Shown one piece after another: positions 4,151 to 15,230 of a stretch of 21,957 bases of DNA (position 1 is its first letter; each line of letters starts with the position of its first letter). Made by a program: the position numbers and the translations under genes. This DNA comes from Candidatus Hodarchaeota archaeon (GTDB lineage Archaea > Asgardarchaeota > Heimdallarchaeia > Hodarchaeales > Hodarchaeaceae): the NCBI GenBank assembly GCA_016839785.1, contig JAEOTQ010000067.1, positions 1 to 21,957 on the forward strand. The letters run 5' to 3'. The notes under the pieces were generated by a model that made no database searches, was not told where the DNA came from, and was given only the letters and a program-made list of their open reading frames with translations.

Positions 4151-4297
4151 ACGATCACAAGCTTTTCAAAGCCAAATTAATTATGCAATCCTTAAATTTC
4201 GATATCATAAAATTAAGAAAGGTCTAATTTTAAATTATTCGTCACTGAACGATTAAGTGTGAAGTTTGATTTTTTAAACTGGGATATTTGGTCAGAG

Positions 4298-4501
4298 TCA
4301 ATCAAAGCAATGGAAATGAAAGTTTACATTTCTGATCCTTTCTTGATGAATATTGTCAATTTTGTCATTATTTCGAAAATTCAATGATCTAGGATTGAAT
4401 AGACGGTGAGATATAATATTAAAACTCTCACTGGTCATACACAAGGTAGAGAAGAGTATAATCACTAGTACCAGAGAGGATTTCTGTTTATTTCTCTCCA
4501 T
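4298..4501 (-). pseudogene. Probable truncated N-terminus of a secreted protein
   Basis: From ATG 4501 it reads MERNKQKSSLVLVIILFSTLCMTSES..., a basic plus hydrophobic signal-peptide-like start like the neighbouring cargo genes. There is no C-terminal anchor and it is only 67 aa. Confidence 0.3.
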
Positions 4502-4598
4502 TCTGTTACCAAGATACCCGCTCACCTTTACCACATCCTTTCCTTTAGAAAAGTTCAGAATTAGTTTATCTAGAGATTTTCTTGTATGAAACTTTTCT

Positions 4599-4964
4599 TT
4601 GTCAGCACCTTCACATGAATTTGCAATTGTCTTTTCATGTGCAGATACTATTCTGACCAATACGGGGATTTTCACCATTTTTTATTCTAAACATGATCCC
4701 TATGCCATTGCCACCTTACTGGGTATTCCGAAAAATGAGTATGATCAACTCCGTGCTTTGTTGAAGGTCAATCCTGATGTTCGGAATTGTTTGATCTCCG
4801 TTAATGGCCAGCTGTCGTTGTTACGGACGAATGACTTTCTTTTAGATCTATCCACGCCTTTTGATCTTTCTGCGATCCAAAATCTCCCTCTCCAACGGCA
4901 ACTCCATGCTTCCTACCAACAGTATGTCTTTGATCCTATTGACGAAATTCTGTCTCAAAAATAG
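4599..4964 (+). pseudogene. 3' fragment of a probable HerA/VirB4/TraG-like (FtsK-HerA superfamily) ATPase gene
   Basis: ILTNTGIFTIF...D..AIA.LLG.....Y..L..L resembles the segment after the Q-motif of HerA/VirB4-type ATPases. Walker A/B are absent and the start is a weak TTG, so it is 5'-truncated. The family call is by eye. Confidence 0.45.
4926..4961 (+). repeat. Copy 1 of a diverged direct repeat (gene 3' end, VFDPIDEILSQK)
   Basis: gtctttgatcctattgacgaaattctgtctcaaaaa; 29/36 nt identical to 8862-8897. Confidence 0.8.
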
Positions 4965-4998
4965 TGGGAATTCCAATGTATACTGGTGTTAGATCCGT

Positions 4999-5670
4999 TT
5001 ACTTCTCCTTTCTTCTTTTTTGAGTAATATTCTGCTTGTAAAAGACTCCCATCATCAAAGCCAATATAGCCATGGATCCTGGCGTGTTGATAGTCTGGAG
5101 TGTTGGATCGATTGGATTATCATTGATGTACTGGATAGAGGTGGATTCACTATTATTCGTCCAGAAATAGGATTCATATCTCACGGTAATATTTAAATAT
5201 ACTATTCCCGTCCATATCGTGTTCATGGGTATGTTTGTGATGAGGTCTGATAGATTCCATCGTCTTTGTTGCACCCATAAATCTTCATGAATTCCGTATG
5301 TCACTGATCTTCTCCAAATTTTTAGGCTTTGATTGTCAACACTTTCTCCCGACGAGTTATAAAAATCTACTTTTAGGTCTGCACGTATGTATGTCTCCTT
5401 CCCCTCGGTGTGTATTGGTGTCGTAAAATGATATTCATATTCTATGTCCACCAGTGTGATGGTAGTCCAATCCGTAGGCACTTCAGCCGTTACAGAAACA
5501 TAAATATCCTCTATCTCCTTATCTGGAAAATAACATCTCATTACTAGATGAAGTTTTTTTCCAGAAGCCATTGTGGAAGATTTTACTTCATAAGTAATCA
5601 AGAACAAGCTATTAGAGAGACAAATTATTATTAGAATTAGCCATTGTGATTTTCCAGTTCGTCTACTCAT
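4999..5670 (-). CDS. Hypothetical secreted protein with C-terminal membrane anchor
   Basis: Likely ATG at 5670 (MSRRTGKSQWLILIIICL) with GGTGA upstream; the track gives a TTG start at 5694. C-terminus TPGSMAILALMMGVFY...KRRKEK. Confidence 0.75.
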   Translation of the reverse strand: MSRRTGKSQWLILIIICLSNSLFLITYEVKSSTMASGKKLHLVMRCYFPDKEIEDIYVSVTAEVPTDWTTITLVDIEYEYHFTTPIHTEGKETYIRADLKVDFYNSSGESVDNQSLKIWRRSVTYGIHEDLWVQQRRWNLSDLITNIPMNTIWTGIVYLNITVRYESYFWTNNSESTSIQYINDNPIDPTLQTINTPGSMAILALMMGVFYKQNITQKRRKEK

Positions 5671-5724
5671 TTTGTATCCTTCACCACGAAACAACTTATA
5701 GCTCTTGTAGCTTACCTATCTTTC

Positions 5725-8034
5725 TTAATGCTTACGATGGATTCGTTTCTTACTTACGAGTATAAGAGAGACAAAGATCACTAGGATTTCTAACCGACCT
5801 TCCTTAATTATCGAAGTTGTCGTAGTTATTATTGATGTACTGGTTGGTATCTCGGAAGTGGTTGTTTCTTCTGATGTCCAGGTAGATGTGGTAGATTCAG
5901 ATTCGCTTGTAATATTGGTGCTAACGCCATTTATAATTTCAAATTTCTGTACTTCTTCCCACGGTTGAAAGAGGGATCTTTCAGGATCGAATTCGCCATA
6001 TATCCAATTTGCGACAACCGTAAGTTCTCGTGACTGGTACAAGGTAATATATGCATAATCGAGAGAGACATTCCGTTCAATATTCTCAATAATCTTCGCC
6101 CGTTCCTGTAAATTACCTTCATTTTTTGATTCGGTAATTAGCTCACTTACCACTGGGTTCGAATAATTCAGTTGAACGGCGTACCCTTGGTTGGCTACGT
6201 AAAACCTTTCTAAATAATTATTAGCATCTGGATAACGTGTAGAGTGTTCAATTAAAACCATAGGGAGCTCTGGTTGAATTGTGATGTATGTTGAATGACT
6301 TACTTCTCGAAGAAGTATCTTGATTCCTACGTCCATTTCCTCTATAGTACTTTCGATATGCATCGCCAATGTTCGTGTTACTGGATCTCTGTCTTTCAAG
6401 ACCAGAGTAATTGTTCCCCGCCAGCCAAGTGCTTCGAATAGAGCTTTAGTACCCTCGGGATCATATTGAGGTTGATATCCTTCATCAATTAAAAAATCTG
6501 TAGCACCCAGAATGTGTTGTGGAATTATCCCTTGTTGAGGTTCTCCAATTCCCTCTTCCAAGTCAATGATTAGCTTTTCGGTATCAATGGCCTTACTCAT
6601 GGCGAGTCGAAAAAAGCTATTTGCAAAGGGGTTATTGTGAATCGTGCGATTATCAGAGAAAGGTGGATTTCCGTTATCCTCACTCCAAGAATACGGATAC
6701 CAATCACTAGCATTATATTTGGACTCCTCTGCTTCTTCTACCCACTCTGAGGCAATTAATGAATGTTGATTTATTCCTAGAAAATAGAGTTGAGAATTCT
6801 GATGGGTTAAATAAGCATTTAGTTCCATGTCAGAGGACAGTACTTTGATTGTCCCATCTTGTATCAGTCTATCTATATTAATAATGCGACTGACATAAGA
6901 ATGAGGGAGGGCCACTAATTCGATATCACCTTCGAGTATATCATCAATATGGGTATTTAGATTATTATTTATTCTGATTAATACATACTCGTGACCTCTA
7001 TTTGAAAACAATACTTCATCCCACTTGGTCCATAGATAGTTTTTCTGACATTTTGCTTGTTGTTGGAAATCTGTCTCTGAGGGCAAAAGATAATACGGAC
7101 CGCTTCCACACGCTGAAGACGTCATATTTGTATGTATATATTGACTATTCATCTTAATTGAAGGGACTACTCCCGATATATTCCCATTCCAGCCATTTTG
7201 AAATCCAAGTTTCGTATAATTACCAGCTAATTGCGGGAACCACCAATCTAAGGGGACCATAGCAGAATTATTATCTTGTGTATGGTTTATATATTGATAT
7301 TCTGTGTAGGAAGCTGGTATAGATTCTGCAATCCAGACAGGATTAACTGCACATCCAACATTTGTCGTTAATACTCCTAAGACTGCAGCTACACCGTATT
7401 TTACATTAATTCTTAAGGTCCAATCGTCCACCACTTCTACTGCATTCTTTTCCAAATACTCGTACATATGGGTCAGATTCACATCAAATTCATGCATATA
7501 TGCATTCTGCCACTTTCCCTCGTTCTTGTCCCAGATTGTGAAATTTGTTCCCTGTAGATATGGTTCCAGATACCTATTATCGCCCAGTGGAGCTCCAGTG
7601 ATTATCATCCGATCGATCGAGTATTTCATTATCCATGCATTGATTTCTATACTGGTATTCTCGCCTGTACTGGGTAGTACAAAGTAATGCCCTTTCTCGA
7701 TGGTGAAATTTATGGTTTTTTTATCTGAGGCTATATTCCAACTGGAGGCTATTTCTCCTTTGATTGAACCTTTTCTTACCTCAACGCTATTAAGTAATTT
7801 TTCATAAATTCCATCAATTAGTGCATCACCTACTAGGCTCGGATTCAGAGCTGGATCAAGGGTATCTGGACTTGTCGTTGCTCCAATGATCAGAGTATCA
7901 GGGTCTTTTTCTGATATTATGCTCCTCATCAGTGGAGTAGCAATTATTCCAGTGGATATAATCATTATTATTAGAATACTTCCTGCTGCGAGATAAATTC
8001 CTCTGGTTATCCCGATTTTTGTGAAGATGTTCAC
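5725..8034 (-). CDS. ABC transporter substrate-binding protein, family 5 (peptide/nickel-type), orphan
   Basis: Motifs TLIIG....PDTLDPA, IYEKLL, A.SW.I..D.K...F, YSIDR, GSGPY, FR.AMS.AID and YDPE..KAL. It has an N-terminal TM segment and a Ser/Thr linker, C-terminal TM and basic tail. The GTG start overlaps the upstream TGA (GTGA 8031-8034). Confidence 0.85.
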   Translation of the reverse strand: MNIFTKIGITRGIYLAAGSILIIMIISTGIIATPLMRSIISEKDPDTLIIGATTSPDTLDPALNPSLVGDALIDGIYEKLLNSVEVRKGSIKGEIASSWNIASDKKTINFTIEKGHYFVLPSTGENTSIEINAWIMKYSIDRMIITGAPLGDNRYLEPYLQGTNFTIWDKNEGKWQNAYMHEFDVNLTHMYEYLEKNAVEVVDDWTLRINVKYGVAAVLGVLTTNVGCAVNPVWIAESIPASYTEYQYINHTQDNNSAMVPLDWWFPQLAGNYTKLGFQNGWNGNISGVVPSIKMNSQYIHTNMTSSACGSGPYYLLPSETDFQQQAKCQKNYLWTKWDEVLFSNRGHEYVLIRINNNLNTHIDDILEGDIELVALPHSYVSRIINIDRLIQDGTIKVLSSDMELNAYLTHQNSQLYFLGINQHSLIASEWVEEAEESKYNASDWYPYSWSEDNGNPPFSDNRTIHNNPFANSFFRLAMSKAIDTEKLIIDLEEGIGEPQQGIIPQHILGATDFLIDEGYQPQYDPEGTKALFEALGWRGTITLVLKDRDPVTRTLAMHIESTIEEMDVGIKILLREVSHSTYITIQPELPMVLIEHSTRYPDANNYLERFYVANQGYAVQLNYSNPVVSELITESKNEGNLQERAKIIENIERNVSLDYAYITLYQSRELTVVANWIYGEFDPERSLFQPWEEVQKFEIINGVSTNITSESESTTSTWTSEETTTSEIPTSTSIITTTTSIIKEGRLEILVIFVSLILVSKKRIHRKH

Positions 8035-8747
8035 TTCTTTTCCCTTTCTTCATGTAGCGAATATTTACGATAAATTCGTCTCATACTCACGCTGATGAGT
8101 GAAACTATGATTATTGCTACCCCTAGACTGGTTCCCTTAGTAATGGTAGTAGTAGTAGTAGTAGTAGTAGTAGTTTTTATGGTGGATTGGAGAGTCGTAG
8201 TTGTAGACTGCTGACTTGGTTTTGATGGATTATATGTTACTAGATTAGTCCAATGATTTGGCCACGTAACTGGAGGAAAGTCGTATTCTAAGGGCTTTTC
8301 TATCCATATGCCATCTATTTTTATTGATACATGGCTAAAAAAATGTAATACATAGGGGGTGTAGACATAATATTGCCAATACTCAGTTGAAGCTACTACA
8401 ATTGGGAAATCGACTGTATTAGAGAGGGTTATATTTCCGACAAACCGTCTGTTTCTGCAGAGGTCCAACAAACTTTCTGTAATATTGATTAGATTAATGC
8501 TGTGAGTTTTATCATCTAAATTAGCAATTGTTATATTGAATCCCTTCACCATCATCACATCCCAACTTGAACCCCCAGGACAATCACCTCCCGTAAAATG
8601 GTATTGAGCATCAAGCATAAGAATTTCTAGATTGAATTCTTCTTTTCCCCCTTCTATGATGGATAGGGAAGGAAATAATGAGAGTAGAATCAAGAAGCTG
8701 ATTCCTAGGGGAATATAGACCTTTCTCACCTTCCGTTGATTTATCAA
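8031..8747 (-). CDS. Hypothetical secreted/anchored protein, 'family A' (paralog of 9724-10365)
   Basis: Signal peptide, IANLDDKTHSI and FPIVVASTEYWQ motifs shared with 9724-10365, poly-Thr linker, TM and RR tail. Confidence 0.8.
   Translation of the reverse strand: MINQRKVRKVYIPLGISFLILLSLFPSLSIIEGGKEEFNLEILMLDAQYHFTGGDCPGGSSWDVMMVKGFNITIANLDDKTHSINLINITESLLDLCRNRRFVGNITLSNTVDFPIVVASTEYWQYYVYTPYVLHFFSHVSIKIDGIWIEKPLEYDFPPVTWPNHWTNLVTYNPSKPSQQSTTTTLQSTIKTTTTTTTTTTITKGTSLGVAIIIVSLISVSMRRIYRKYSLHEEREKK
8146..8174. repeat. (GTA)9 trinucleotide microsatellite encoding a poly-Thr linker
   Basis: gtagtagtagtagtagtagtagtagtagt gives 9 consecutive ACT codons on the minus strand. Confidence 0.95.
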
Positions 8748-8861
8748 CTTCCTCGCAAAATTTCTAATTTCTCTCCCTTTTATGCCTTTCTTCTGAGCTA
8801 CTCTGTGTCAAAAAACTGTATTACATCACTTAAGATGTTGAAGATGGTAAACGAGCATTCT

Positions 8862-8909
8862 GTCTTTGATCCCATTGATGAAGTTATTTCCCAGAAAGAA
8901 TTACTCTAA
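8862..8909 (+). repeat. Copy 2 of the diverged repeat: remnant 3' end of a homolog of the 4599-4964 gene
   Basis: Translates VFDPIDEVISQKELL*, 10/12 aa identical to the C-terminus of 4599-4964. Similarity stops abruptly upstream of 8861. Confidence 0.75.
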
Positions 8910-8948
8910 AACACGCTGTTATTATTGAAAGAATCCCTTCAACTTTTG

Positions 8949-9656
8949 TCATTTTTTCCTTCTGGAATAACCAATCACTAAAACACTTAAGCTTATGGTC
9001 ATAATTTCGAGGAAGGGTGCTATCAAGCTAGTTGTTGTGGTTACGTTATCTGTCGGGTGAGTGGTTTGACTTTGTGATTCTAACCAAGCTGTGATATTGC
9101 CAACATAGATGTTCCCAGTCCCAACAAAGACGCTATACCCTGGATTGGTTTTTTCAAGCGTATATGTCCCACTTGCTTTTTTCGTTGGATCGCTAAGAGA
9201 ATAATCTATCCTCCAGTGACCCACATTATCACTCACTACATGCTGGATATACTCCCCACTGTATGTTTCATTTGGCGCGACTTCAAAGGACTTTTTTCCT
9301 TCCCATATCTCGGGTATTCTGTTTGGATCTTGGGGATAAAATTCAAAATTGACCGTAGAAGTGGAATTGGCATGAATGTAGATGGTGATATTCCATGTTG
9401 TCCCAATACAACAGGTTGAATCTTATTCTTGGCATAATTGTTGTGATGAGGAGGTAGTGGCAATAGTGAAAAACTGGGTGGTATTCACGGAATGAGGTGA
9501 TACTTGAAATACATAGAATGAACTTAAAGGGAAGTAGAGGATTAAACAAGTGAAAAAAAGGAAAAAGAAAGTGCGAGATTCTGGGAAAAATACTCGTTTA
9601 AATTCTGCTGGAGATTTCATTTCAATCACCCTATTGAGTTCATTTGAAATGTTCAT
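8949..9656 (-). pseudogene. Secreted/anchored protein, 'family B', interrupted by a single in-frame TAA (9423-9425)
   Basis: Track ORFs 9423-9656 and 8949-9236 are the same frame (708 nt total). It reads ...QQLCQE*DSTCCIGTTWNITIYIHANSTSTVNFEFYPQDPNRIPEIWEGKKSFEVAPNETYSGEYIQHVVSDNVGHW... through to a TM and RRKK. The paralog at 21711 has GAA (Glu) at the stop position. Confidence 0.85.
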
Positions 9657-9723
9657 AGAAACCCCTTTATTGATAATTTTTGTCTAAGCATCGTTTATAT
9701 GTCAATTCGATTGGCCAAAGTAT

Positions 9724-10365
9724 TTATCTTTTTTGAGTTCTGTCTGTCATTCTCCGCAAGAAAATTAGAACAACGCCAACGAGAATAGCAGTTGGGCCTA
9801 TCGAAGCAGGAGTAATTGAAATATAAGTGAAATGGTGTACATTAGACCAAGTGGTTAATAATTCATCTTGAAAATACATATATCCCTTTTCATGTGTACT
9901 TATAATCCCAAAATCAATTATAGTCTTATCCACAAGAATTTTTAAGGAAATAGACTCGGTGCACGGAGGACAAGTAAATTTTCCTTGCCAGTATCGATGA
10001 GAGCCTAGAGTGACAGGAAGAGAAAATTCTTCAGAGGGTAATTCTAAAACTGTGAATTCTGAGTAATTTGGTTTGTGTCCACTCATGGTACTATTCACTT
10101 GCTCCAACGTGTGCGGGACATCATCTAAGTTGGCGATTCCTAAGGTGAATAATATAATATTAATGCTATCCCATTGAGTAATTGTTCCTGAATTGTTTAT
10201 CTCACCCCCACAATATCCTGTTTCCAAATCAAGGATTTTTACACTAATATTCGTCTCTAATGATCCTTTTGTTGTTAAAACTGGTATTAACCCTAATATT
10301 CCCAGAATAAGAATAATCAATATATGTCGGGGTCTCTTCTCATCCAAATATCTCTTCACCACCAA
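9724..10365 (-). CDS. Hypothetical secreted/anchored protein, 'family A' (paralog of 8031-8747)
   Basis: Signal peptide, IANLDDVPHTL, LPVTLGSHRYWQ, and C-terminal TM with RR tail. Confidence 0.8.
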   Translation of the reverse strand: MVVKRYLDEKRPRHILIILILGILGLIPVLTTKGSLETNISVKILDLETGYCGGEINNSGTITQWDSINIILFTLGIANLDDVPHTLEQVNSTMSGHKPNYSEFTVLELPSEEFSLPVTLGSHRYWQGKFTCPPCTESISLKILVDKTIIDFGIISTHEKGYMYFQDELLTTWSNVHHFTYISITPASIGPTAILVGVVLIFLRRMTDRTQKR

Positions 10366-10482
10366 TTTATTATATCATGAGGGACTTGATAGAACTTAAA
10401 GATTTTCGTTTTTTGGTAGCTTATAAGGGAGAGAAGAGCTAGCTGATGAACACCTCCTAACGCTTGTACTCAACTCATACCC

Positions 10483-11271
10483 ATGGAGGGTGTTGTTTGC
10501 GAGTTTCCCGGAATGACTACCCCAATAATCAAGATCCCCAAAGCGATTTTTAAAGCGTATTATTTTTCTCTTCGGGCCCAACATTATGATCAGCTCGGAA
10601 GCGTCAAAAAGGCTATGGGCTTGTATCTTCATGCAGCTCGTCTATTTACGAGTACAATGAAAAAATTTCCTAAATTTGCGTATTTTCCCTTATGGGCAGA
10701 ACAAACTCGCTTAGTAATTGCCCGTTTGAAGCACTTAAACAAGGAACTCACTCCTACTTCCGAAACTTCCCAAACTCTCTCAAATAAAGAACCTGCAAAA
10801 TCAAAGGAAGAACAGACCCTAACCGCTCTGGTTGCCCAAAGTATTGTCACACCCAATCCCAACTTAACCTGGGCTGATATCATTGGGTTAGATCAAGTCG
10901 TAGAAGAGCTGCAGAAGCTCATCTTTTTACCGCTCCAGCGAACTGAGCTGTTACAGGGGAATATTACCACTCCGCGAACTGTTCTTTTATTTGGTCCACC
11001 TGGATGTGGTAAGACCCATTTGGTCCGTGTTCTTGCCTCTCAGGTCAATGTCCCAGTGTATAGTATTTCCGCCGCGACCCTTCTTTCCAAATGGATGGGT
11101 GAAAGCCAGAAAATGGTCCATGCCTATTATCAGGCTGCTTGGGCCAATAGTCCCTCAATTGTCTTTATTGATGAATTTGATGGGTTATTTGGTAGTCCGT
11201 CTCATGCTTCGTCAGGGTCAGAAGCGTCTACTACTGCCATTCAGATTCAAAAAGAGCTGCAACAACATTGA
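10483..11271 (+). pseudogene. Vps4-like MIT-AAA+ ATPase, C-terminally truncated/frameshifted
   Basis: N-terminal MIT-like three-helix region (AQHYDQLG..KKAMGLY..AA..F...W.......RLKHL), then P...W.DIIGL, Walker A GPPGCGKT, pore loop SKWMGESQK and Walker B IVFIDEFD. It stops at KELQQH*, and another frame continues IDGFGNNK (the expected MDG motif). Confidence 0.8.
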
Positions 11272-11375
11272 TGGGTTTGGAAATAATAAAAGGTTTTTTA
11301 TTTTAGAGTTAGGAAAAATATCTAGACCTAGCTTACATTGTGAAATAAGGGATTTAAGGAGAGGAATTGACTTAA

Positions 11376-11861
11376 TTACAATGATTCATCGGTTTTTAAT
11401 TTTAGCTGATTAAAAAGAATTATTTTCCCGAGAAGAGAGTCTCTTCCTAGATTGACTAATTTTTCTTCTGAAAGGTCAGCAATTATGGTTGACATTGGAG
11501 TCTCATCAGAAAAGTCCATAATTTCTTGTAATTTTAATATCTCAAAATTTAATTGGTTCAACTGACTGAAATTCATGACTTGAAGATCTAGGACCTTTTT
11601 CACCTCTTCCAGTCTTAAATAGAGTACATTAAGATCTTTAACTGACATATTTCTTGGTAAGCCCAGTTCTTCTTGCATTAGCTTGAGGATTTGCCAAGTC
11701 ACCTTGATATTCGTATCAGAAGTTTCAGAATACATCTTTAATTCTTTAAGCTCGGCTTTTTCAATATTCATCTGTTTTTGGGGGGCCGTAGCATTCACAT
11801 CCAAGACAATTTTATTATATGAGTTTTCTTGAATTACATTCATCTGATATTCTTGGAACAT
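11376..11861 (-). CDS. Hypothetical helical/coiled-coil protein
   Basis: 161-aa ORF rich in E/L/K/Q with protein-like composition and GAGGGG directly upstream of the ATG. No family recognised. Confidence 0.6.
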   Translation of the reverse strand: MFQEYQMNVIQENSYNKIVLDVNATAPQKQMNIEKAELKELKMYSETSDTNIKVTWQILKLMQEELGLPRNMSVKDLNVLYLRLEEVKKVLDLQVMNFSQLNQLNFEILKLQEIMDFSDETPMSTIIADLSEEKLVNLGRDSLLGKIILFNQLKLKTDESL

Positions 11862-12139
11862 CCCCTCATTTAATCAATCGTAATATAAAAGTGACATGAC
11901 AAAGAGTCGGAGATGTGATACGAAGAATATGAGAAGAAAGAAGTCTTCTACATAAGTGTTCATGACTGAATTTGTCAGATAACCCTTTAAAAAAAGAGTT
12001 CTGGACAGGACGAGTCATGCATCCGCTATCAGGAGAATGAAGAATCACAAACTGATACCTCATTCGAAGGATAATTTGAAACTAGGAATCGATTGAGATT
12101 TTAGTACATTGATTTCAATGACTAATAGCTGTTACAACC

Positions 12140-12290
12140 TCACCTTTGACGAGTAACCGTCCAACGTAGTAACGAGGGTGTCACACCAAGATCAATGCCA
12201 AGTTCACGGCTTCATTCTTCAGTTTTTGACAGGAGTAACCCCTTTTAGGGATTTAAGAGAGAAAACCCCCCCTTCACTTTTGACGGTGAA
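12140..12290. repeat. Three imperfect direct repeats TCA(C/G)-Y-TTTGAC in an intergenic region
   Basis: 12140 tcacctttgacgagtaacc, 12219 tcagtttttgacaggagtaacc, 12274 tcacttttgacggtgaa. Confidence 0.45.
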
Positions 12291-12611: not shown

Positions 12612-15230
12612 TTGGAACATTTCGATTTCTCCACTAATTCAAAACGGATATTGAGGAAATTGTTAGTGAAGCACATCCAAAAGATTAAGTACAGTATAGT
12701 GTTCTTTATAATTTTACTAACTCTTAAAACATTTTCTGTTCAATATTTGGGAGAGCCAATCTCTAATTCATATGAATCCATCTCAAAAGCTAATTTTAAG
12801 GAATATCTTGGACGTTCTGATTCAAGTTCTGCTAGAATGAGTAAAATGAATGCAAATACTTCTTCTTTGACTTCGAATAATCGATGGGTGGATACACGAT
12901 TTCTGTTTCGGAAGAACTTTACAATCCCCATTTCAAACATATTTGGGAATTTAACCGATTTTCCAGTATTACTTGATATATATGATAAAGATCTAAAGAA
13001 TCGTACTTTATTTGACAATTTTCATCTCCTTTTCACGAATAAATATGGACAAATCCTCCCTCATGAAATAGAACTTTTCAATCCAGAGCATAATGAAACC
13101 CATTGTCATCTTATCACCTGGGTTAAGACAAACCTCACTACCACAGATGATAATATTCTTTCAATGTATTATGGAATCAACTCATCTTACGCACAAAATA
13201 TTCCTGAACAAGTATGGAGTAGTCAATACCTTGGAGTTTGGCATTTGTCTGAAAATTCAGGACCACGCTATGATTCGACAATTAATAAACTAGATCTGAG
13301 CCCACAAAACTATAATAAAGATGAAGCCACTATTGGTATAATTGGGAGTGCAGATGATTTTGATGGAATTGATGATTATCTAGAGACATATAAAACACCA
13401 ACTGAAATAGGATTGAACGGAAAGAATAATAAAACAGTGAGTATGTGGATTTACACAAGAGAATTTACTTCAAGAGGGCTTTTTGAATTTGGACAATTTG
13501 CTAATAGGCGATTTTTTTCATTACGAACCCAAAATAAATCTAATGAATGGAAGGCAGATTGGTGGGGGGCAAGTGATTCTTTCACTTTTCCTTCTGAAAA
13601 CATATGGATCTACCTAGTTATCACGTACAATAATGAGACATTAAAGATTTTTGCCAATAGTGAATTAATGGTAAACAGCACACAAAATCTGAATACTGGA
13701 GAAAAAATAACCTTAAGATTCGGAACCACCTTAAATCAGTCATTTTCAGGAAAAATAGATGAGATCCGTATTTCCAAGAATGTCCAATCAGAAGAATGTA
13801 TAAAAACAGAATATTTGAATCAGAAGGATCCATCTAGGTTTTATTTACCAGGGAATCAGGAGATAGATGCTACAGCCCCTACAATACACAATTTTGGAAT
13901 CAACAGTCAAGGAAAGGGTAGTGTAAATTTTTTTGCCAATGTTGAAGACGATTACACAACAGTGAAGGAAGTTACAATCAAAGTTGGGGAGTCATTTTTC
14001 CAAATGCAGCAAAATTTTTCTGGAATCTGGTATTATAACTACTCGCCAATCTATTATGGTGAACAGCTTGTATATCAAATTGTGAATGCATCGGATCTTT
14101 TTGGAAATTTTCTCTCTGAATCGTCAGAAGAAAAAGTATTTGAATATCTCGTTGATCAAGAAAATCCTAAAATTAAAACTTTATACTTCATCATTAATAA
14201 CGAAAGAAACCCAACCAATCTAACTTTTTATTCTGAAATTGAGGAATATGGATCAGGTATTGACAATGTTACGTTATATTATTACTTCGAAGAAATAAGC
14301 AATAATCAAACAGGAATAGGAGCGTCTATTGTCCAAGCAGATAGTTTAAATTGGTCACACACATTAATGGACTGTGAAAATGAGAGTGAGGGAATCTATT
14401 TATTCCGAAAAACAATCCCGTTTTTACAAAATGAGACTACTTGGAAAATAATCTATCAATTATACTCAACTGATAAATGTGGGAATATAAATAACAATCC
14501 TTTCACAATCAACCCAGAAAACGCGTTACAATCGATTATCATTTATAATTCTGTTTCTACTCTTGATAATCCAGTGATAAAGGATTTAAATCAGTATATA
14601 TCATTGATCACCATCTCTTTTCTAATATTCCTTCTGTTTTCAGGTGTTTATGTTAAATTTATCCGAAAACACCATCAATTTGGAATTGACCCGACTTTCC
14701 TTTTAATGAAGTCTAAGCGTGTGAGTGAAAAGGATATTAAAAGAGTAATTGATGACCATACAATAGGAATTGTACTTTCCTATTTTGACCAACATCGAGG
14801 GCCAACACCTATTTTAACAGTCCCAATATCTCTTGAAACTGAAAGTAACTCTTTTATGAATCTTGCTGTACAATCTTTCAGTACCTGTAAATTTTCACGT
14901 AATTATGAAGACCTCTCTCATGCACTATTTAATTATTCATACGAAAACTCCCATAAAACGATCAATCTCAAATCAATTTCCTATACATTTGTAATTGTTA
15001 AGCCGGAAGCGCGTGGAGGAGTTGAGAATTTGTGTTTGAGCGTTTTAGCTGTCGATAAAGTAGCAAGACTACTTATGCAAATCCCAGACATATTGGAGGA
15101 ACGAGTAAAACGAATCCAAAATTTACTTGATAAAGATACAGAAGATCAATTGATCATTTTAAATGAAATGGATGAATTTCGAAAAATGATTTCACGAATA
15201 GTTCTATCTTATACTAAAATTTATCACTAA
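12612..15230 (+). CDS. DUF2341/LamG-domain membrane protein with Ig-like repeats, a TM segment and a cytoplasmic uDENN/longin-like C-terminal domain
   Basis: DUF2341-like FRK..TI...LTDFPVLL...L.HEIE...WVK...MYYG, followed by VW...YLGVWHL. LamG-like FDG.DDY...F.G.IDEIRIS. D.T.P.I Ig-like starts. TM at about 14594-14662. C-terminal IVLSYFDQHRGP.P and ARGG.E...LSV. The start codon (TTG) is uncertain. Confidence 0.8.
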   Translation: MEHFDFSTNSKRILRKLLVKHIQKIKYSIVFFIILLTLKTFSVQYLGEPISNSYESISKANFKEYLGRSDSSSARMSKMNANTSSLTSNNRWVDTRFLFRKNFTIPISNIFGNLTDFPVLLDIYDKDLKNRTLFDNFHLLFTNKYGQILPHEIELFNPEHNETHCHLITWVKTNLTTTDDNILSMYYGINSSYAQNIPEQVWSSQYLGVWHLSENSGPRYDSTINKLDLSPQNYNKDEATIGIIGSADDFDGIDDYLETYKTPTEIGLNGKNNKTVSMWIYTREFTSRGLFEFGQFANRRFFSLRTQNKSNEWKADWWGASDSFTFPSENIWIYLVITYNNETLKIFANSELMVNSTQNLNTGEKITLRFGTTLNQSFSGKIDEIRISKNVQSEECIKTEYLNQKDPSRFYLPGNQEIDATAPTIHNFGINSQGKGSVNFFANVEDDYTTVKEVTIKVGESFFQMQQNFSGIWYYNYSPIYYGEQLVYQIVNASDLFGNFLSESSEEKVFEYLVDQENPKIKTLYFIINNERNPTNLTFYSEIEEYGSGIDNVTLYYYFEEISNNQTGIGASIVQADSLNWSHTLMDCENESEGIYLFRKTIPFLQNETTWKIIYQLYSTDKCGNINNNPFTINPENALQSIIIYNSVSTLDNPVIKDLNQYISLITISFLIFLLFSGVYVKFIRKHHQFGIDPTFLLMKSKRVSEKDIKRVIDDHTIGIVLSYFDQHRGPTPILTVPISLETESNSFMNLAVQSFSTCKFSRNYEDLSHALFNYSYENSHKTINLKSISYTFVIVKPEARGGVENLCLSVLAVDKVARLLMQIPDILEERVKRIQNLLDKDTEDQLIILNEMDEFRKMISRIVLSYTKIYH

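Follow-up and report, generated by a model that had tools for sequence, protein, structure and literature searches.

The stretch of DNA analysed here, referred to below as the window, makes up the entire contig C18 (21,957 bp) from a metagenome bin of Candidatus Hodarchaeota archaeon, G000, which comprises 4.04 Mb in 248 contigs and is 84.5% complete. Its source belongs to the Hodarchaeales, the archaeal order placed nearest to the eukaryotes. The window carries a 6.7-kb island of surface-protein genes bordered by pieces of two ATPase genes, the tail of a VirB4/HerA-like gene on the left and the head of a Vps4/CdvC-like gene on the right. Accessory VirB4/HerA-like ATPase genes are called HerA-B here and the extra Vps4/CdvC-like genes Vps4L; F23 and F29 are families of open reading frames (ORFs), and G-numbers denote the genomes of one Hodarchaeales genus, 22 in all with G000 included. 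The neighbourhoods of both ATPase genes were surveyed by searching 41 relatives, fetching 43 loci and clustering their ORFs. A first-pass annotation had read the island as a captured segment of a mobile element built around the two ATPases. The gene identities, the truncations and the physical linkage have stood; the element with an ATPase backbone has not, and the locus offers instead an array of stranded HerA-B gene ends, which is newly noted here. Full-text literature searches (main texts) returned no description of either family or of stranded-end arrays in Asgard archaea, and in the portion of PMC8813620 open to a term search, VirB4, HerA, FtsK and conjugation all go unmentioned.

Remnants of two ATPase genes

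The left remnant (4650–4964, plus strand) consists of the last 104 codons and the stop codon of HerA-B, as delimited by tblastn, DNA identity, a family profile and a tree, and thus agrees with its initial description as only the 3' end of a plus-strand gene; the ORF as called (4599–4964) includes 17 extra, unrelated codons. With the full-length HerA-family paralog of the same bin (C206:12850-14982, 711 aa) as query, tblastn aligns residues 620–718 to window positions 4650–4946 at 47% identity and finds no alignment further upstream. The nearest relative, a 754-aa gene in G002:C54, shares 79% DNA identity over 314 nt, with a sharp start at 4650 and an end at the stop codon, and clusters with the remnant in a quick family tree (SH-aLRT 99). 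BLAST extensions to 4611 or 4542 were rejected, since a profile test finds no homology 5' of 4650: translated in the same frame, the adjacent 330 nt obtain a family-profile score of -1.3 bits, compared with up to 4.6 bits among 300 shuffles. Relative to the G002 ortholog the ratio of non-synonymous to synonymous substitution rates (dN/dS) is 0.12, at a dS of 0.99. The remnant begins past the ATPase core and contains neither Walker A, Walker B nor any other ATPase motif, all of which occur in full-length relatives only; it represents a piece of a VirB4/HerA-FtsK superfamily member and is not itself a working one. No other copy of the missing front was found anywhere in the G000 assembly.

The identity of the parent gene, first described as HerA/VirB4-like, is borne out by its relatives. 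The C206 paralog matches Pfam DUF87/'HerA central' at 3e-14, and the full-length G002 protein, modelled from 26 aligned sequences with a mean predicted local distance difference test score (pLDDT) of 77.8, retrieves the TrwK/VirB4 chains of plasmid R388 (8rtd, 7o43) as its best Foldseek matches, at E-values of 1e-19 to 1e-13 over approximately 800 columns. The model aligns with the VirB4 C-terminal domain 4ag5 at a template modelling (TM) score of 0.70, and HerA itself (4d2i) is found at E 6e-12, the HerA hexamers ranking after the VirB4 proteins. The parent family of the left remnant is thus predicted to have the VirB4-type two-domain fold, and a Walker A motif, G-M-T-G-E-G-K, is invariant among its full-length members. 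NCBIfam returned weak matches only, to the VirB4-like model conju_CD1110 (5e-11), CedD (1e-10) and HerA models, all far under their cut-offs (e.g. 41 vs 325 bits). A protein search gave 69 clusters at 47–63% identity, after which identity falls to 33%; all are proteins from Heimdall-, Hodarchaeales- or other Asgard metagenome-assembled genomes and are named by their sources 'ATP-binding protein' or 'DUF87'. PADLOC made no defence-system call, with weak HerA/mad8 and generic AAA (IetA-like) matches only and none for the large protein encoded next to Vps4L (see below).

HerA genes are present in 19 of the 21 other genomes of the genus, with one to three copies in each. One lineage is syntenic in at least 10 genomes, in the order luciferase-like gene, small ORF, HerA, two Pfam-less genes, uL6, uS8, a helix-turn-helix (HTH) protein and an AAA gene, and a sister lineage, to which the C206 paralog belongs, has five extra genes inserted. 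The neighbours of this chromosomal lineage (C206, loci L050-L070) include two conserved Pfam-less flanking genes of about 515 and 626 aa, a stand-alone uS8-uL6 pair, the HTH protein and PAN. In G012 all that is left of the syntenic chromosomal gene is a C-terminal remnant of 85 codons interrupted by two TGA stops (C3:206299-206556, L073), and the accessory HerA-B of that genome (C24) is intact. The other copies, those we call HerA-B, split into several lineages. Homology between sister HerA-B copies ends at the gene limits (G001/G017, 90% over 2253 nt; G010/G012, 76% over 2236 nt) and their flanks are unrelated, which suggests that HerA-B is a single-gene unit in changing surroundings. One end of contig C96 of the window's own bin (26921-27523) carries genes that are 83–95% identical to those 3' of HerA-B and a DDE transposase in G002 (C54:7418-15000); the contig breaks within the first of these genes, and the orthologous HerA-B site of G000 may lie just past its end.

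The right remnant (10483–11271, plus strand) represents the first 262 codons of Vps4L, as judged from Pfam AAA (2.5e-22), the CdvC profile and alignment to G019:C21, and is accordingly only the 5' part of a plus-strand gene, as had been proposed. It is 81–82% identical along its whole length to the first ~253–262 residues of that 432-aa G019 gene, with a dN/dS of 0.09, and aligns to residues 23–246 of the canonical 387-aa Vps4, which is encoded in the endosomal sorting complex required for transport (ESCRT) locus on contig C137 of G000, at 33–35% identity. The remnant has an MIT-like N-terminus, a Walker A (GPPGCGKT) and a Walker B (IVFIDEFD), and stops after '...IQIQKELQQH'. The second region of homology, sensor 1, the arginine fingers and the lid are absent; the last ~170 codons are gone, together with the giant partner gene, and neither the missing back nor the partner has a copy in the G000 assembly. 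AAA+ ATPases without arginine fingers cannot build an active AAA ring, and the remnant could therefore not form one. The right breakpoint falls at 11268–11279, where homology to the intact gene stops after two 1-nt gaps. A frameshifted continuation 3' of 11271 ('IDGFG...', +1 frame) was considered and dropped, since only about 10 nt of homology are left and the tail scores under shuffles.

The description of the right-hand gene as a Vps4-like AAA protein likewise holds for its full-length relative, whose best NCBIfam model is CdvC (2.5e-45 over residues 17–380; 155 bits against a cut-off of 650). The Pfam MIT model is silent on Vps4L; its N-terminal part can nevertheless be aligned with the MIT region of canonical Vps4, starting at residue 23, and with the CdvC profile, starting at position 12. 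Full-length Vps4L occurs at seven loci in six genomes and the next gene is always Pfam-less and encodes 860–1500 aa, so that Vps4L is normally part of a two-gene unit with a giant acidic protein. The GC content at third codon positions (GC3) of Vps4L exceeds that of every immediate neighbour, the giant partner included, in five of five loci scanned (L040, L045, L076, L078 and L079; e.g. 0.57 vs 0.39).

Stranded ends of HerA-B

A repeat search of the window detected a 47-nt direct repeat whose copies are 77% identical in DNA. Copy 1 (4915–4961, plus strand) is formed by the last 16 codons of the HerA-B remnant, YQQYVFDPIDEILSQK, and copy 2 (8851–8897, plus strand), situated between the genes of a 238-aa and a 95-aa protein, is a stranded 16-codon HerA-B terminus, NEHSVFDPIDEVISQK, that has lost its stop codon. 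Between them the two copies bracket a 3.9-kb cassette of three surface-protein genes. Over 17 aligned codons four differ synonymously and seven non-synonymously; inspected by eye, the last 12 codons hold four synonymous and two conservative changes. The peptide pattern of this terminus occurs at these two places only in the six-frame translation of G000, and a degenerate DNA pattern (up to 3 mismatches) gives two matches in the window and none in 100 shuffles. A profile of the last 45 residues of the family, run against the six-frame genome, missed copy 2; the extreme terminus is subgroup-specific and a subgroup pattern was used for this reason.

The same degenerate pattern applied to the 22 genomes of the genus yields 13 matches, against none for a reversed control. 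Five are the ends of full-length HerA-B genes, five are extra copies and three belong to one unrelated, identical 26-mer. The extra copies are distributed over G000 (two), G010 (one) and G008 (two). In G010 the copy reads IHDSYQQLYFNPIQEILTKD, has kept its stop codon and, on the strand of the live gene, is located 13.9 kb downstream of it; compared with the gene end it differs at five codons synonymously and at four non-synonymously out of 21, and the last 13 residues are identical. On G008:C37 the live gene is followed at 6.6 and 11.9 kb by copies of 22 and 96 codons, again on its own strand, with five synonymous and two non-synonymous differing codons out of 23 in the comparison of an extra copy with the gene end. 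Stranded and live ends thus differ largely at synonymous sites, and would therefore have diverged while functional and been brought together later. The distal G008 copy abuts the gene of a beta-helix surface protein, and in G010 such a gene stands directly 3' of the live HerA-B. Genes for a B12-binding radical-SAM protein, a NYN-LOTUS protein and a leucine-rich-repeat protein are located between the stranded HerA-B ends of G008:C37 (L043, 7819-15033).

Considered across the genus the remnants measure 16, 20, 22, 40, 60, 77, 85, 96 and 104 codons, and all of them reach the gene end; those of 40, 60, 77 and 85 codons are C-terminal remnants in four further genomes, and an N-terminal piece was seen only once. 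The interval from the live gene to the stranded end in G010 encodes a beta-helix protein, a Zn-ribbon protein, a Vps4L head remnant, an SBP_bac_5 protein, F23, a PI-PLC-like protein and a TPR/CN-hydrolase protein. Three of these families besides HerA-B are shared with the window, namely the Vps4L head remnant, SBP_bac_5 and F23.

Genes, junctions and variants of the island

The five complete ORFs between the remnants are all encoded on the minus strand and all have an N-terminal hydrophobic segment, in agreement with the original description of the intervening genes as minus-strand surface proteins; four of the five pass the threshold for C-terminal hydrophobicity, each followed by a basic tail, and three have Thr/Ser-rich runs. 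The cassette between the repeat copies begins with a 231-aa membrane protein without a Pfam family (4999–5694), continues with a 769-aa SBP_bac_5-type surface protein (5725–8034; Pfam E 1.6e-23) and ends with a 238-aa surface protein with a poly-Thr stalk and a C-terminal anchor (8031–8747). The 769-aa protein has a Ser/Thr-rich stalk and a C-terminal membrane anchor, its hydrophobic segments spanning residues 7–41 and 741–761, and no transporter genes adjoin it. Past the second repeat copy follow a 95-aa protein with a Thr-rich stretch and a C-terminal anchor (8949–9236) and a 213-aa surface protein (9724–10365) that is a paralog of the 238-aa protein (28% identity over 95 aa, E 5e-9). The poly-Thr stalk run at 8138–8173 (ACT/ACC, minus strand) matches many relatives at 90–97%; these matches were rejected as homology, being low-complexity similarity.

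The first gene past the right breakpoint, on the minus strand at 11376–11861, encodes a 161-aa helical protein of the multi-copy family F23 and is the ortholog of a gene on G019:C82. Beyond it lies a repeat of about 75 nt (11959–12033), with a second repeat of about 85 nt beside it (12116–12200). The former has some 20 copies in the G000 bin (78–85% identity) and some 40 matches in G002, on both strands, is missing from the matching spot of the G019 ortholog region (C82 1991-2087), and looks like a miniature inverted-repeat transposable element (MITE). ARAGORN and Rfam searches of the window for tRNAs and other RNAs found nothing, and a tRNA identity for this repeat was dropped on those grounds. 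Further along, positions 12612–15230 encode an 872-aa protein with a Laminin_G_3 domain, a transmembrane helix and a C-terminal cytoplasmic module, whose family is strongly expanded, with 6–37 matches per genome in five relatives and many of these within proteins of 1000–8800 aa.

Composition sets both remnants apart from the genes of the host, as had been noticed by eye: the purine fraction of the coding strand is 0.413 on the left and 0.473 on the right against a genome mean of 0.521 (standard deviation 0.034; 1647 long ORFs), and their GC3 values of 0.43 and 0.40 are in the top 0.3–0.5% of 2558 ORFs of at least 200 aa. The island as a whole has a GC content of 0.384, with flanks at 0.342 and 0.353, and is in the top 3.2% of same-size windows in the bin. 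HerA-B exceeds its immediate neighbours in GC3 at G010, G012 and G002; it does not do so at five other HerA-B loci scanned. The rise in GC3 goes with the individual genes and does not extend over a shared block.

The window was compared with public marine-sediment runs, X1–X4, whose depth is low (about 3–6) and which leave parts of the island, including most of 11175–11481, without cover. An independent 729-nt contig from X2, covering 4251–4970, bridges the left junction; a contig from X1 covers 8766–9211, including repeat copy 2, with zero differences, and contigs from X4, a run of a different study, are 95–99% identical to parts of the left flank and the island. That C18 is an assembly artefact, chimeric at one or both junctions, might be suspected of a contig from a bin of this kind, all the more so at such a read depth, with 44–60% of matching public contigs diverging from the window in the manner of strain mixtures and with the right junction not seen bridged in X1–X4. 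We nevertheless find this hardly credible. Apart from the X2 contig across the left junction, the right end of C18 overlaps C248 by an exact 127 nt (the left end has no contig-end overlap), which points to de Bruijn assembly, in which case every junction k-mer would derive from reads. Moreover, neither junction region has a second copy in the assembly, which leaves no repeat to mis-join through, and the missing halves of both genes are nowhere in it; nor was a repeat, an insertion sequence (IS) end or any similar sequence found when the junction regions were compared with all fetched loci and the genome.

One X4 contig, with 6 differences in 192 nt, follows the window to position 11268 and then continues ATGGATGGCTTGTAC..., that is MDGLYTPLVN, as in the intact G019 gene, and Vps4L is accordingly intact in a near-identical population variant. 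A dN/dS close to 0.1 in both remnants argues that they were under selection for most of their divergence. Given both this ratio and the intact variant, the cut in Vps4L is recent and was probably made in place. Between 3500 and 12700, 44–60% of the matching X1–X3 contigs continue unlike the window, with loose ends within the surface-protein genes at, for example, 5020, 5299, 6044, 6761 and 8312; co-occurring strains seem to vary strongly in this island.

These data also bear on a one-step scenario that needs no mobile element. A linear piece of chromosome, derived from the homologous variable locus in a related strain and randomly cut inside both genes, so as to run from HerA-B codon 651 through the cassette, the stranded end and two small genes to Vps4L codon 262, could have been inserted in one step by illegitimate recombination between the aminotransferase gene and F23. 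Both ends are sharp, the intact frames and low dN/dS of the two remnants imply that both cuts are recent and possibly one event, the island is richer in GC than its flanks, and synteny with G003, G008 and G010 extends no further than the aminotransferase gene; the population variant with an intact Vps4L and the same island interior would represent a donor-like state. We nonetheless judge this scenario unlikely. F23 adjoins a Vps4L remnant both here and in the G010 island, so that the right flank seems native to such loci, and a plain deletion explains the right junction equally well, given that G019 has its F23-F29 pair and Vps4L on separate short contigs. The empty site that such an insertion predicts was found in none of the relatives examined.

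Origin of the island and comparison with known systems

HerA and Vps4L families are physically linked more than by chance. Each of the three truncated Vps4L copies found lies on a contig that also carries a HerA gene or remnant, which is true of none of the full-length copies. G010 has a Vps4L head remnant of 59 codons (42% identity) 2.6 kb downstream of its full HerA-B, and G003:C41 one of 70 codons 14 kb upstream of HerA; in these two genomes and the window, where the distance is 5.5 kb, the heads are always on the same strand as the HerA gene. This linkage is an argument for the reading proposed at the outset, according to which the island was captured from a circular or tandem mobile element that has the Vps4-like ATPase first and the VirB4/HerA-like ATPase last in its backbone. 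The apparent behaviour of HerA-B as a movable single-gene unit, the raised GC3 in both genes, the DDE transposase gene 3' of the G002 HerA-B (the only such case) and a predicted VirB4-like fold suited to DNA transfer would also agree with it.

The full-length genes tell against this element, which we consider very unlikely. None of the seven full-length Vps4L loci has a HerA gene in the fetched flanks, and none of the 25 full-length HerA loci, in 22 genomes, has a full-length Vps4L; one HerA lineage sits in conserved chromosomal synteny beside uS8, uL6 and PAN. The same-strand HerA-AAA synteny of seven fetched loci was rejected as a link to Vps4L because the AAA gene is PAN, with a proteasomal OB domain and an AAA domain in G010 and a length of 358–398 aa at the same position in other loci. 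As to the expected company, none of the 10 window ORFs has a Pfam match to an integrase, transposase, type IV secretion system (T4SS), capsid or ESCRT-III protein, and T4SS channel, coupling-protein and relaxase genes are absent from the window and from the genes tested around G000:C206, G002:C54, G010 and G008 and recur nowhere in the 43 loci. Viral contigs scanned with both full-length proteins gave no relative, in a scan that detects close relatives only, and tblastn against plasmids no close relative, with one 22% match in an actinobacterium. Nor was any HerA-like gene found in 80 metagenomic Vps4-family loci (824 kb); these loci, at 33% identity or less, are generic Vps4/CdvC and say nothing on Vps4L itself. 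The high GC3, finally, belongs to each gene, not to a block. The mobile element joining an ESCRT-type and a DNA-pumping ATPase therefore does not stand, and a smaller but real finding remains.

The island is best explained as a decayed part of a fast-changing accessory locus in this Hodarchaeales genus and not as a piece of a two-ATPase mobile element. Specifically, we lean, if only slightly, towards a locus in which HerA-B is the anchor where recombination stacks gene blocks and in which Vps4L was cut by a recent deletion. The 3' end of HerA-B would serve as a homology anchor beside which blocks of mostly surface-protein genes insert, each incoming block carrying its own copy of the HerA-B end and thereby stranding the older end downstream. 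The 104-codon piece may be a further stranded end, in which case the live gene would lie past the contig start, or the stump of a HerA-B gene lost by deletion. Vps4L and its giant partner would be a frequent cargo or neighbour of such islands, repeatedly lost by deletions that spare its head; here, a recent deletion ending at 11268–11279 would have removed the 3' 170 codons of Vps4L together with the partner gene. Mechanistically this could involve homology at one end and an illegitimate join at the other, or the single-crossover integration of a circularised fragment. The variable repeat length, together with the failure to find a recombinase, argues against a site-specific element and would fit homology-facilitated or single-crossover recombination.

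Several observations weigh against the stacking of blocks at HerA-B. There is no full-length HerA-B in the 4.6 kb upstream on the contig or elsewhere in the assembly, and a full-length protein of the window's own HerA-B lineage is not in the protein collection, where the search gave only the G002 protein; the status of the 104-codon piece as a stranded end is for these reasons unproven. Neither a recombinase nor an endonuclease was found among the 10 ORFs of the window or the 10 G010 and G008 island genes tested. No empty site was encountered, and the DNA 3' of the G010 remnant is unlike that 3' of HerA-B in the sister genome G012. Extra copies occur in three of the six genomes carrying this terminus type, and F23 is multi-copy, with 1–5 matches per genome, so that its shared presence is weaker evidence. 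On the right-hand side no independent contig of X1–X4 bridges the junction in its thinly covered region, and two recent truncations flanking one block could stem from one event.

A more ambitious version of the stacking model would make HerA-B and its downstream island a transferable unit without an integrase. The VirB4-like ATPase would then be the motor of DNA transfer or uptake and its own gene the landing pad: incoming DNA would recombine into the resident HerA-B and stack surface-protein and conflict genes, Vps4L and the giant partner included, behind it. We regard this as distinctly improbable; if it were true, the trail of stranded gene ends would record integration events, and a DNA pump would be coupled to the very site where the pumped DNA integrates. 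The homology-anchored locus that we favour makes smaller claims. The stranded tail ends would be the trace of a gene-stacking process centred on a lineage-specific gene for a VirB4-like ATPase, HerA-B may border a hot spot that swaps surface-protein genes and conflict systems without a recognisable integrase, which bears on how Asgard archaea gain accessory genes, and the window would provide a dated example of the loss of Vps4L and its giant partner, intact in a near-identical population variant and cut here.

The likeness of the HerA family to VirB4/TrwK and the FtsK-HerA superfamily resides in the two-domain build and the Walker A motif of its full-length members. In contrast to these proteins, however, identity is only 12–16% and every curated cut-off is missed by far, the HerA copies have no adjoining VirB3/6/8/10, coupling-protein or pilin genes, and one of the lineages is chromosomal and adjoins ribosomal-protein genes. 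Vps4L resembles Vps4 and CdvC in an N-terminus that aligns with the MIT region of canonical Vps4, in a single AAA cassette with Walker A and B and in having CdvC as its best NCBIfam model. It departs from them in scoring below the equivalog cut-off, in the silence of the Pfam MIT and Vps4_C models and in its partner, a Pfam-less protein of 860–1500 aa rather than ESCRT-III, and the window copy, cut before the arginine fingers, has an incomplete AAA cassette.

The arrangement of the repeats invites comparison with integrative elements that target the 3' end of a tRNA or protein gene, in which a direct repeat of the last codons of the target gene likewise brackets DNA. Unlike such elements, the HerA-B islands disclose no integrase or homing endonuclease among the 10 window ORFs and the 10 from G010 and G008, and the length of the repeat is not constant (16 to 104 codons), which speaks against an att core of the site-specific kind. 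Another parallel in layout is offered by the orphan arrays of Rhs, contact-dependent inhibition (CDI) and type VI secretion system (T6SS) genes, which are explained by homology-facilitated illegitimate recombination. Both have same-direction stranded ends downstream of a live gene with unrelated blocks between them, and the stranded HerA-B copies, too, differ from the live end largely at synonymous sites. The differences are that an ATPase gene end is repeated here instead of a toxin tip with its immunity gene, that the cargo consists mostly of surface proteins and miscellaneous accessory genes, and that in the window the live gene is missing.

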